IMG/VR virus record: IMGVR_UViG_3300023084_000009 | Span: 30,337 to 94,336 of that record | Strand: one strand, 5' to 3' | Source of the DNA: a virus | DNA length: 64,000 bases | Part shown: piece after piece, positions 14,059 to 31,248 of the stretch | Layout of the letters: each line of letters starts with the position of its first letter | How positions within the stretch are numbered: the stretch's first letter is position 1 | Translations under genes and position numbers: made by a program | Notes under the pieces: generated by a model | Seen by the model: only the letters and a program-made list of their open reading frames with translations | Told to the model about the DNA's origin: nothing | Database searches by the model: none

Positions 14059-14154
14059 TTACTTCCTCGTTAGAAGAAGTACTTCTCCGTATAACAAGCA
14101 AATAAAAGCAACGCTAAAAAGGGTTCCGAACCCAGCTACTTGAAGTGCTTGCAT
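14059..14154 (-). CDS. 31-aa single-TM peptide
   Basis: MQALQVAGFGTLFSVAFICLLYGEVLLLTRK, 4 nt after the DUF4278 stop. Confidence 0.55.
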   Translation of the reverse strand: MQALQVAGFGTLFSVAFICLLYGEVLLLTRK

Positions 14155-14158
14155 GGTT

Positions 14159-14323
14159 TTACTTATTGTAAGTGTGACCGCGATAGCAGAATGTTCCGTG
14201 AATTTCGTCAACACCTTGCTGACACTCATACTTAACACCACGATAGGATGTCATAGCAATTTGTGCGTCGTGCAGTGCTGATGCTTTCTGGATTTGCTTT
14301 TTGATCAGAGTGAGTGTGTTCAT
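14159..14323 (-). CDS. DUF4278-like protein (possible glutamine synthetase inactivating factor-like)
   Basis: MNTLTLIKKQI...TSYRGVKY...FCYRGHTY (two YRG motifs), downstream of a glutamine-riboswitch-like RNA. Confidence 0.75.
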   Translation of the reverse strand: MNTLTLIKKQIQKASALHDAQIAMTSYRGVKYECQQGVDEIHGTFCYRGHTYNK

Positions 14324-14361
14324 TTGTCGTACCTGAAATACTAGGGTGAGTTTTAAGTCTC

Positions 14362-14635
14362 CCGTTCCTTCAGTCGTTTGCGTCCTGTGCTTCAAAACAC
14401 TTAGGGTCTGTATGTTCCATCCAATGGATGTAGATATCAGCCTTTTCAAAAGGAGTGAAGAGAGTTGTCTCATCTAATCCTTGCTTCAACCATTTCAAAT
14501 CTTCACAGCGAAGATAATTCTCCACTGGGACATGACTAAAAAAGATGAGTGCTAATGATAACATAGGATGAACGCTCCGTTCCGCGACTTACTTGCGTCC
14601 TATTCGCTATTCGCAAATAGCGAATGGGATGAACG
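14362..14635 (-). ncRNA. Double glutamine riboswitch (glnA-motif-like)
   Basis: Two copies of CGUUCAUCC...GGACGCAA...GGAACGG; AGUA/GAA E-loop elements; 10-bp perfect P2 hairpin; sits between the promoter and DUF4278. Confidence 0.8.
14370..14564 (-). CDS. 64-aa protein encoded inside a riboswitch arm
   Basis: ORF track; hydrophobic N-terminus, two Cys, ends DAND; start and stop lie in aptamer-conserved sequence. Confidence 0.6.
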   Translation of the reverse strand: MLSLALIFFSHVPVENYLRCEDLKWLKQGLDETTLFTPFEKADIYIHWMEHTDPKCFEAQDAND

Positions 14636-14642
14636 TAAGGGT

Positions 14643-14671
14643 ATTATACCCCTAATGTGAGTATTTATCAA
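14643..14671 (-). promoter_or_regulatory. Sigma70-type promoter of the riboswitch operon, with an embedded ATAAATA late motif
   Basis: TTGATA-N17-TATAAT; predicted +1 near 14636, immediately before the aptamer. Confidence 0.8.
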
Positions 14672-14679
14672 GTAAGTTC

Positions 14680-14695
14680 TGTAAAATACGATACA
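14680..14695. promoter_or_regulatory. NtcA-binding box
   Basis: TGTA-AAATACGA-TACA (GTA-N8-TAC with the flanking T/A), 8 bp upstream of the -35. Confidence 0.65.
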
Positions 14696-30027: not shown

Positions 30028-31248
30028 TTACCATGCCCAAACACGGATTCGACCGTCGCCGCCGTTTCCGCCAGCGCCAGAATCGCCTTGACCGTCAAAC
30101 GATGCGCCACCACCGGCGCCACCACCACCTATCGCTGCATTACCACCAGCACCAGCATCTCCAGTTTTATTCGGAGCACCGCCGCCAGCACCACTAAGTC
30201 CACCGGCAGAAATGCTTCCACCCGATTCACCATCAGTCGATCCAGCATTATTGGTGAATGGAGCATCAGAAGGATTCCAACCTCCAGGAGTTGCTAGATA
30301 ACTAGTAGTGTTATATGCAGCACCGCCACCACCGCCAGCGCCGCACCAGCCTTGAAAACCACCGGCTGAAGCGTAAATCTGTGGATAATTATTGGTGCGG
30401 GACCCGCCGGGTCCTAGATATCTGAAGTTATTGTAAGCTGAATATTGTCCCCAGGCAACTGGGACTGTGTTGTTGTAAGGATTAGTCCCAACACTGTCAT
30501 CGTCACCACCTTTACCTTTTGTTCCAAAACCACTAGTAAGGTGAGATCCAAATGATGATGTGCCACCATCTGTACCATCATTACCATTTGTACTATCCGC
30601 TGTAACAGAAGCTCCACCGGTTCCGCCAGCGGCAATAGTAATTGACTCTGTTGATCCTAGAGAACTAGCAGCAAAAATTTTCTTAGTTATAGGACTTCCC
30701 CAACCACCTGATCCACCATTGGTTCTAGTATTGGAAGCACCTTTTCTTCCACTACCGCCGCCGCCCCCGCCGCCGATAACTTCGACTTCAACCCAGGTTA
30801 CACCAGCAGGTTTTGTCCAAGTTCCGTTAGATGTAAATTCTTGGAAATCAAGTGAAGAACCACCACCAGACCCAGTAATACCTTGGGTGCCTTGTGTTCC
30901 AGATCCAGTAGTACCTTGAATTCCTTGAACTCCCTGGGAACCAACAACTCCCTGAGTACCTGTGGTTCCTTGTCTTCCTTCAGTACCTTGAATCCCGTAT
31001 CCCTGAACACCCTGAGTTCCTGTGTTTCCTTGAATGCCCTGAGTTCCTTGAGCACCATCGGAAGGTCCTTGAAGACCCTGCACTCCTTGAATCCCTTGGA
31101 CACCAGATGAAGGTCCTTGTGTTCCTTGAGTACCTTGAGTGCCTAGATTCGATCTAACCCAAGACGATCCGTTCCATTGCCAGGTAGTACTATTCGCACT
31201 ATAAGTTTGATTTAAACTTGGATTATCTGGAAAATTAAGTGCAGGCAT
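30028..31248 (-). CDS. Collagen + glycine-rich virion protein (adhesin-like)
   Basis: LNFP..P, W.WNG.SW, GTQ repeats, FTS.GTW.KPAG...V.VEVIGGGGGG, G.GG.G.IRV. Confidence 0.75.
   Translation of the reverse strand: MPALNFPDNPSLNQTYSANSTTWQWNGSSWVRSNLGTQGTQGTQGPSSGVQGIQGVQGLQGPSDGAQGTQGIQGNTGTQGVQGYGIQGTEGRQGTTGTQGVVGSQGVQGIQGTTGSGTQGTQGITGSGGGSSLDFQEFTSNGTWTKPAGVTWVEVEVIGGGGGGGSGRKGASNTRTNGGSGGWGSPITKKIFAASSLGSTESITIAAGGTGGASVTADSTNGNDGTDGGTSSFGSHLTSGFGTKGKGGDDDSVGTNPYNNTVPVAWGQYSAYNNFRYLGPGGSRTNNYPQIYASAGGFQGWCGAGGGGGAAYNTTSYLATPGGWNPSDAPFTNNAGSTDGESGGSISAGGLSGAGGGAPNKTGDAGAGGNAAIGGGGAGGGASFDGQGDSGAGGNGGDGRIRVWAW

Follow-up and report, generated by a model that had tools for sequence, protein, structure and literature searches.

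The window analyzed here, a 64,000-nucleotide stretch of viral DNA (positions 30,337 to 94,336 of the IMG/VR record IMGVR_UViG_3300023084_000009), is T4-like cyanomyophage DNA with PhoH, ThyX and other typical genes on its minus strand. The nearest isolates to the locus described below are S-WAM2, S-RSM4, S-H35 and S-RIM8, and 416 phage records match it. On this strand, a leader precedes a small operon in which ORF1 lies within the leader itself and ORF2 follows it (Table 1). An earlier reading of this DNA, made from the letters alone (the sequence-only reading), had described the leader as two glutamine aptamers interlocked through one shared P3 helix rather than simply placed in tandem. All the elements that it named are present at the coordinates of Table 1 on the minus strand. 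As it had noted, neither copy of the aptamer has a P3 hairpin of its own, both copies have C in the junction (ACG-C), and in both a G directly follows GAACG. The motif CGTTCAYCC occurs just twice in the 64 kb, both times in this leader, and the whole layout recurs in relatives; the arrangement is therefore not due to chance.

Table 1. Features of the leader and the small operon, listed 5' to 3' as RNA (positions are those of the window; copies of the P1 strands are numbered in brackets)
Feature	Position	Strand	Basis or remark
-35 box TTGATA of the operon promoter	14666..14671	-	sequence and relatives
-10 box TATAAT, 17 nt past the -35 box	14643..14648	-	sequence and relatives
Predicted transcription start, 1 nt ahead of the aptamer	~A14636	-	prediction
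Outer P1, 5' strand CGUUC(1)	14631..14635	-	pairs with 14363-14367; invariant in relatives
Outer P2 hairpin (UCC...GGA base, 10-bp upper stem, UGCG loop)	14598..14629	-	MFE fold and covariation
Outer junction CG-C; C14595 is the outer linchpin, partner G14362	14595..14597	-	
GGACGC-AAGUA block	14600-14590	-	sequence
AAGUA, 5' half of the outer E-loop	14590..14594	-	invariant; fits the Rfam Glutamine consensus
Shared P3 strand AGUCG	14585..14589	-	complement of 14372-14376; followed by CG
Inner P1 hairpin	14570..14582	-	GAACG(1) 14582-78, loop GAG 14577-75, CGUUC(2) 14574-70
Inner linchpin nucleotide in the inner P1 loop	G14577	-	partner C14380
GGAG, SD-like, 10 nt ahead of the ORF1 AUG	14578-75	-	
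Inner P2 base, 5' strand UCCUAUGUU	14560..14568	-	holds the ORF1 start codon 14564-14562
ORF1, 64 aa, in the 'loop' of inner P2	14370..14564	-	phrog_13397
ORF1 stop codon UGA	14372-14370	-	overlaps P3/E-loop
Inner P2 base, 3' strand	14383..14391	-	pairs with 14560-14568
GGACGC-AAA block at the end of ORF1	14385-14377	-	sequence
Inner junction CG-C-AAA; C14380 is the inner linchpin	14377..14382	-	linchpin covariation
Shared P3 strand CGACU	14372..14376	-	complementarity and covariation
GAAG, 3' half of the outer E-loop	14368..14371	-	
Outer P1, 3' strand GAACG(2) (14367-14363) and linchpin G14362	14362..14367	-	
Variable hairpin GGAG...CUC-CC right after the aptamer	14344..14361	-	fold kept in relatives
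UUUCAG (14338-14333) and weak SD-like AGGU ahead of ORF2	14331..14338	-	proposed partner of CUGAAG
ORF2, 54 aa, two YRG motifs, DUF4278-like	14159..14323	-	phrog_545

Standard annotation does not recognize the leader, Rfam giving no match in the whole window at the gathering threshold. In a permissive scan, copy 1 alone was aligned to Glutamine (17.4 bits, threshold 35) and to Glutamine-II (18.1 bits, threshold 33). Sub-threshold matches to symR and a miRNA on the plus strand were set aside as chance hits reflecting the palindrome of the P2 hairpin. Of the defining features of glutamine-I (glnA RNA motif, RF01739; for example the leader of Synechocystis gifB/IF17, PMC6212724), the outer core lacks only the self-contained P3 hairpin and the Rfam score; it has the same P1 CGUUC/GAACG, the same P2 between A-UCC and GGA-CG, the ACG junction, a long-range linchpin to the nucleotide after P1 and the AAGUA/GAAG E-loop by P3. 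Likeness extends to glutamine-II (Downstream-peptide motif, RF01704, PMC6698751), which has the same pocket, the CGUUC/GAACG helix, the ACG strand with its C:G long-range pair and a C-type junction ACG-C ... GAACG-G as found here, and which lies upstream of short YRG peptides. That RNA folds as an H-type pseudoknot; its P2 is coaxial, and ~8 loop nucleotides lead into GAACG, where copy 1 of our element has 0-1 nt. A glutamine-II fold for copy 1 was rejected on this topology, as a 3-bp hairpin would leave no loop nucleotides to span the helix.

To collect relatives, viral contigs were scanned for the pattern 'AAGUA - P3 strand - GGAACG - loop - CGUUC'. The nested layout was found in several hundred of them, and the family sample comprised 150 instances from the first two collections and 235 after the third, representing 71 distinct junction types. 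Many relatives are compact (86-106 nt) with the same block order, no inner gene and a short hairpin in place of ORF1, while further relatives carry a different small gene at the ORF1 site, a gene in the first P2, or both. The ORF1-less relatives in salt-marsh runs have their breakpoints exactly at the base of inner P2, joining 14386 to 14567 via 8 nt that make up a UUCG-type hairpin. Rfam scored one compact form (L111) at 43.6 bits as a single glutamine-I aptamer with a 38-nt P3 insert, and gave two separate matches for an ordinary phage tandem (L176). A covariance model built from the compact forms found the 5' half of the element in the window, left the 195-nt ORF unbridged and placed a false 3' half inside ORF1; run on the whole virus record, it failed to bridge the ORF in the same way and no second element was found. 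Among the matches listed, the pattern scan of genome contigs returned chance matches only, one of them in a Synechococcus MAG. With the same covariance model and strict filters, no nested form was found in the 151 picocyanobacterial genomes of the family of this MAG, the sole match being a single canonical glnA aptamer.

The proposed sharing of P3 was borne out by these relatives. The two P3 strands lie 208 nt apart in the window, and in compact relatives a second aptamer core lies between them. They are complementary in all 150 instances collected first and in all 235 instances of the final sample (71 types), with compensatory changes. Without exception, the complement of the strand after AAGUA stands immediately ahead of the first downstream NAAGGAAC, and this holds both where that site is 24-39 nt away and where it is 150-220 nt away. 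Compensatory types include AGUCG/CGACU, AGUCA/UGACU, AGCCGACA/UGCCGACU, AGCCGACG/CGCCGACU, the reversed CGCCGACU/AGCCGACG, GGACGG/CCGCCC, GAGCAUA/UAUGCUC, AGCCGACU/AGCCGACU, GGACGACG/CGCCGCCC and AGACAACU/AGUUGACU, together with the partial types ..ACA/UGC.. and ..ACG/CGC..; they occur in compact and gene-bearing forms alike. Counted by type, the first pair is A:U in 50, G:C in 14, C:G in 2 and G.U in 3, and the last pair is G:C in 34, U:A in 28 and A:U in 5. Conservation of AGUCG/CGACU across homologs, which the sequence-only reading had singled out as a check on its proposal, was thus observed, with complementarity kept and covariation present.

Two copies in one leader could also form a simple tandem, that is, two independent P3-less aptamers built on CGUUC(1)/GAACG(1) and CGUUC(2)/GAACG(2), the linker hairpin being merely an 'off' structure. 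Ordinary glutamine tandems do exist in phages, as the one above illustrates, and are common (157 doublets, PMC9481103); the weak alignments of both Rfam models to copy 1 alone are in line with such an arrangement. The P1 strands are identical in both copies, so P1 alone cannot discriminate between the two schemes. The linchpin offers a second measure: in the solved structures (PMC6698751) the nucleotide after ACG pairs with the nucleotide 3' of GAACG, capping the ligand pocket. Both C:G and G:C versions of this pair occur in our family, and the two cores vary independently in this respect. With nested partners, the outer linchpin is Watson-Crick in 69 of the 71 types (C:G 46, G:C 23), the two exceptions being rearranged elements, and the inner linchpin in 56 of 71 (C:G 41, G:C 14, U:A 1), with one further G.U. 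With tandem partners, the corresponding values are just 33/71 and 34/71, so that roughly every second type would have an unpaired linchpin. These counts support the outer P1 and the C...G long-range pair in the form first proposed.

An alignment of 20 compact elements (MAFFT) told the same story. Under the nested structure 93.5% of its cells are paired and 11 pairs show changes on both sides, values reached by none of 500 shuffles, and slid controls pair 29-50%. The linchpins are 100% paired with nested partners and 65% with tandem partners, 35% of the rows being left unpaired by the latter. Outer P2 shows rich covariation in relatives. In seven instances GAACG(1) has become CAACG and CGUUC(2) has become CGUUG, with CGUUC(1) and GAACG(2) unchanged. 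Such a swap is compensated only inside the linker hairpin and would give C.C and G.G mismatches in the tandem scheme; it follows that the linker hairpin, suggested early on to be a circularly permuted P1, is real and that the outer strands pair together. The P1 helix CGUUC/GAACG of glutamine-I is present both as the outer and as the inner helix, invariant or compensated in relatives.

Folding energies gave a similar picture. In unconstrained ViennaRNA folding of the 280-nt RNA of the window, the pair probabilities were ~0.82 for the outer P1, which spans a 270-nt range, ~0.80 for the linker hairpin and ~0.35 for P3, compared with 0.06 and 0.008 for the two tandem-style P1 pairings. The nested structure has a free energy of -77.4 kcal/mol and the MFE structure one of -77.5. 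A simple tandem, which would also leave the complementarity and covariation of P3 without a role, is in our opinion hardly tenable. A local permuted fold, in which the 3' strand of outer P2 would pair with the 5' strand of inner P2, was likewise discarded: its pairing would be limited to the conserved GGA/UCC, the variable stretches of the outer and inner P2 stems being no match for each other. As the covariation shows, selection acts on the predicted nested pairing in hundreds of elements from cyanophages. It supports the interlocked reading first made from the letters, including for the gene-bearing form seen in the window.

We consider it likely that the leader is a nested pair of glutamine-I-type aptamers, the inner one permuted, placed at the two ends of a common P3. 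The outer aptamer would follow the normal strand order, with P1 (14635-31/14367-63), the P2 hairpin, the ACG-C junction, the AAGUA/GAAG E-loop and P3. The latter (14589-85/14376-72) would not be capped by a loop and would instead be closed by the circularly permuted second core. In this inner core the GAACG-GAG-CGUUC hairpin would serve as P1, P2 would be a long-range helix whose 'loop' is all of ORF1, and the junction ACG-C-AAA would return into P3. Each core would have its own linchpin (C14595:G14362 in the outer and C14380:G14577 in the inner one). Glutamine would bind both cores, and since both hold the same P3, occupancy of one site would favor that of the other and sharpen the response. 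Compared with glutamine-I, P3 would thus be closed by a second aptamer core and not by a hairpin loop; that core is strand-permuted, its P1 closed by a loop and its P3 opening to the first core, and it has no E-loop. Two more differences are that one P2 encloses an entire protein gene and that the nested form comes from phages, the search of 151 picocyanobacterial genomes having yielded none.

Could both cores bind a ligand? The ligand contacts named in PMC6698751 are the C1:G and G2:C pairs of CGUUC/GAACG, the G of ACG and the long-range pair, and both of our cores have all of them. These ligand-contacting nucleotides are conserved in both cores and invariant in the inner one. The AAGUA/GAAG E-loop is found in the outer core only (14594-90, 14371-68), the inner core having AAA and CG instead. 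We infer that both cores would bind L-glutamine. The suggestion in the sequence-only reading that two glutamines may be bound, perhaps cooperatively, is consistent with the full conservation of the contacts in both cores, and occupancy of the two putative ligand sites could plausibly be coupled through the common P3. The inner P1 is closed by 3 nt, one of which is needed for the linchpin pair, and may be strained.

The outer core might, on the other hand, be the only glutamine sensor, with the inner core acting as a cap for P3 or as an alternative-pairing device. The inner core indeed has no E-loop and its P1 ends in a very short loop, compact forms are read by Rfam as a single aptamer carrying an insert, and 14 of the 71 types have no Watson-Crick inner linchpin where one is expected. 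In these 14 types the first loop nucleotide is A or U opposite C; a register shift is possible, with G at loop position 3 in all loops but one. Against such a scaffold, all the ligand-contacting nucleotides of the inner core are invariant, and its linchpin, a pocket pair in the solved structures, covaries in the C:G, G:C, U:A and G.U forms counted above. This combination of invariant contacts and linchpin covariation is hard to explain by a mere cap, and we find the single-sensor explanation unlikely.

The inner aptamer of the nested pair has ORF1 within it. ORF1 relatives were found in 153 viral contigs with 77-97% protein identity, their variable columns fall 27/17/54 on the three codon positions, a third-position bias, and a search against PHROG gave a match to phrog_13397 (1e-41). 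On these observations ORF1 is a real gene of 64 codons. The RNA blocks around it are almost invariant among the ORF1 relatives. Only 2 of its last 15 columns vary, and the 3' block is conserved also where the ORF1 of relatives ends upstream at a UAG and the stretch is non-coding, which argues that the constraint there acts on RNA rather than on protein. The P2 between A-UCC and GGA-CG that characterizes glutamine-I is present as a hairpin in the outer core and as a long-range helix around ORF1 in the inner core. At the base of this helix, 8 of 9 positions are paired in the window (14568-14560 with 14383-14391). In gene-bearing elements, the stretch that follows CGUUC-A invariably pairs with the one that precedes CG-N, giving the first 4-5 pairs of inner P2, whose sequence changes with the family of the inserted gene (UCCUA/AGGA, UCCCA/UGGGA, UCUAU/AUAGA or CCCC/GGGG).

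The start signals of ORF1 are part of the same structure. A GAG-type loop closes inner P1 in 92 of 120 gene-bearing instances, from several gene families, and in none of 32 nested compact ones; it is this loop that creates the GGAG 10 nt ahead of the AUG. Two G's of GGAG are used in the fold, one in the closing pair of inner P1 and one in the inner linchpin. The start codon is within inner P2, GGAG belongs to the inner P1 loop and the stop codon to P3/E-loop, so that aptamer folding and ORF1 translation should exclude each other. Such mutual exclusion may serve regulation, high glutamine switching ORF1 OFF and ORF2 ON, or may simply reflect that an inserted gene is tolerated. In the window some 200 nt of translated RNA separate the strands of P3, outer P1 and inner P2, and ribosomes on ORF1 or kinetic traps could keep these from pairing in vivo.

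The presence of genes in these helices brings up a quite different explanation, in which the aptamer repeats are a relic of recombination: they would have served as gene-shuffling sites, the long-range helices would be lost in vivo from gene-bearing versions such as that of the window, and ORF1 and ORF2 would be free of glutamine control. The ORF1 family that occupies inner P2 in the window is found in outer P2 in another relative (L120), two elements (L014 and L141) are rearranged with a broken 3' half, and ribosomes translating ORF1 should open the structure. A 173-aa ORF in the outer P2 loop of L014 matched no family in Pfam. Other observations are difficult to reconcile with a relic. Among ORF1 variants with 77-97% protein identity both halves are conserved as RNA, each inserted gene family has its own covarying inner P2 base, the P3 type AGUCA/UGACU occurs in the sample in gene-bearing elements only, the outer linchpin is paired in 31 of the 33 gene-bearing types, and the long-range pairs are favored by folding energy. 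We therefore see a mere relic as very improbable. The covariation in gene-bearing forms could partly be inherited from compact ancestors rather than maintained.

If the nested pair does regulate, which gene does it control? Of 153 nested elements, 142 are followed by a gene for a YRG protein of 40-55 aa. ORF2 matches phrog_545 (1e-32) and, below the cut-off, Pfam DUF4278 (E 4e-4), and the element, like glutamine-I, lies upstream of a DUF4278/YRG gene, as expected of a class that precedes DUF4278/IF17-like or nitrogen-metabolism genes. We propose ORF2 as the gene under control. DUF4278/IF17-like genes are the main targets of cyanobacterial glutamine riboswitches, which turn their translation ON (PMC6212724). 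Between the aptamer and ORF2, the hairpin at 14344..14361 varies in sequence yet stays foldable among relatives; it is followed by UUUCAGGU and then by the ORF2 AUG at 14323. The ORF2 SD in the window is weak (AGGU).

The segment CU[G/A]AAG(G), formed by the P3 end and the E-loop strand, is complementary to a stretch just before the SD of the YRG gene. In the window, CUGAAG (14373-14368) is able to pair alternatively with UUUCAG (14338-14333), and in relatives the two segments covary: CUAAAG always occurs with CUUUAG or CUUUGG, CUGAAG with CUUCAG, UUUCAG or CUUUAG, and CCGAAG with CUUUGG. In the class with a G:C linchpin, the linchpin C and UCUUUA are complementary to the SD UAAGGAG, which mirrors the gifB model. 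These pairings speak for an ON switch: once folded, the outer aptamer would free the ribosome site of ORF2. A single expression platform ahead of ORF2 is supported in the same manner. Folding would withdraw CUGAAG from UUUCAG beside that ribosome site and turn the gene ON at high glutamine, the known direction for glutamine-I and -II switches, with a likely logic of SD masking as in glutamine-I.

The promoter of the window is of the sigma-70 type; the form TTGnnn, a 16-18 nt spacer and TAnnnT was found in 101 of 114 distinct upstream regions of relatives, at the same distance from CGUUC. Metatranscriptome contigs from several studies cover the element. In three salt-marsh runs the summed depth reached hundreds across most of 14342-14613, with 363-521 over this stretch in one run, and fell to 0-2 upstream of ~14614-14647. 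The drop fits a start at the predicted promoter and, in contigs from mixed populations, gives a weak hint of it.

A bolder extension of the nested model is a two-site, two-output toggle, in which glutamine in the inner core would mask the GGAG and AUG of ORF1 (OFF) and glutamine in the outer core would release the ORF2 site (ON). Ribosomes on ORF1 would then be a second input, unfolding P2, P3 and P1. We regard this as possible but rather doubtful. If true, it would be a natural RNA reciprocally controlling two genes on one transcript by host nitrogen status during infection, and the P2 loops would be landing pads for swaps of small genes among cyanophages.

Leaders with tandem or dual aptamers (glycine, guanidine-II and glutamine doublets; PMC9481103) likewise have two units for the same ligand and an expected sharper response. 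In those systems the units stand side by side, whereas here one aptamer would lie inside a helix of the other, a helix common to both. The 2022 review lists 157 doublet and 4 triplet glutamine arrangements as separate, 'pseudo-cooperative' units (PMC9481103); it describes glutamine doublets as separate units only, and the words nested and interlock are absent from it. No nested, interlocked or permuted glutamine riboswitch was found in our literature search; the founding work of Ames & Breaker (2011) lay outside its coverage, and an earlier mention is possible. With respect to the inserted gene, a parallel is found in group I/II introns, which tolerate ORFs in peripheral loops. As in these introns, a gene lies in the loop of a helix, the breakpoints are at the helix base and relatives have a short hairpin. 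The element differs from them in being neither a ribozyme nor a mobile intron and in having the start codon within the helix, where folding and translation likely compete.

The nested pair would be a new combination of aptamers, with a circularly permuted one inside a helix of the other and that helix common to both. In its compact natural form (86-106 nt), it lends itself to testing whether two weak, millimolar sites become cooperative through a helix that they share. The use of riboswitches by phages also looks underestimated: a 2017 survey reported only two glutamine aptamers in cyanophages (PMC5473149), compared with 416 phage records matching this locus and several hundred viral contigs with the nested layout here, and Rfam does not see the gene-bearing forms. 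A riboswitch helix can hold a protein gene, and translation would then compete directly with ligand-dependent folding. In cyanobacteria, IF17 inactivates glutamine synthetase. As the genes proposed to be controlled here encode phage YRG/IF17-like micro-proteins, the element has a bearing on how phages may read or manipulate the nitrogen status of their host.

The promoter of the nested element, which precedes the CGUUC that starts the outer aptamer, carries an NtcA-box-like palindrome (see table below). For the related elements (L001-L199), 114 distinct upstream regions were compared, and 76 of these contain such a palindrome, in most cases with its start 57-60 nt before CGUUC. Its presence here and in the relatives suggests that the promoter would be under 2-oxoglutarate/NtcA control, added to the glutamine control of the leader. 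It is centred near -50, a position that differs from the -41.5 of the classical NtcA box.

Features of the promoter and operon (window coordinates)
Feature	Position	Strand	Location	Sequence
NtcA-box-like palindrome	14681-14694	minus	just upstream of -35 box	GTA-N8-TAC
Inverted repeat	14638-14652	minus	encloses -10 box	GGGTAT-A-ATACCC
Short ORF	14059-14152	minus	immediately 3' of ORF2	start MQALQVAGFGTLFSVAFICLLYG

Variation among the related elements was observed in both the inner P1 loop and the shared P3 helix. In one class (among L331-L437), the first position of the inner P1 loop is neither G nor C, and the loop takes the form NNG-Y or NNG-A (AAGU, AAGC, UAGU, UGGC and others) opposite the inner junction C; the G of the linchpin, the long-range pair between the junction and the nucleotide 3' of P1, may here be supplied by loop position 3. 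The classes with a P3 of 6 or 8 positions (e.g., L097:3435-3530, L198:2710-2811, and L387) were non-Watson-Crick at position 3 in every case (C.A, A.C or U.U), with position 6 usually A.C, and both positions remain mismatched when the P3 strands change sequence. A+.C wobbles and a deliberately weak helix are candidate readings of these mismatches, which are absent from the 5-bp P3 of the window.

The homologous region of the well-studied isolate S-RSM4 (FM207411.1 3432-4704) is annotated with hypothetical proteins only and lacks an RNA feature. Its homologue of ORF1, the gene inside the inner P2, is annotated as 51 aa (156 nt), compared with 64-66 codons in relatives. The operon may also encode a membrane micro-protein, since the short ORF that follows ORF2, the gene of the 54-aa YRG protein, has a hydrophobic product.

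At the site of the inverted repeat around the -10 box, relatives carry GGTC-TATAAT-GACC and ATGGT-ATAATA-ACCAT, the arms covarying between the window and these sequences. The repeat resembles the promoter-early stem-loops that T4-type phages have on either side of small genes that are shuffled. Two related sequences (L014:1230-1860 and L141) are chained modules, in which another promoter and another nested element, with GAGCAUA/UAUGCUC as its P3, come after a rearranged 3' half, GGAAC-AACUGAAGG. The outer P2 of this second element encloses a 173-aa ORF, for which a Pfam search gave no match. In another relative (L120), the ORF1 family of the window sits in the outer P2 instead of the inner P2. 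Taken with the chained modules, this placement points to the repeated aptamer blocks as sites of gene shuffling.
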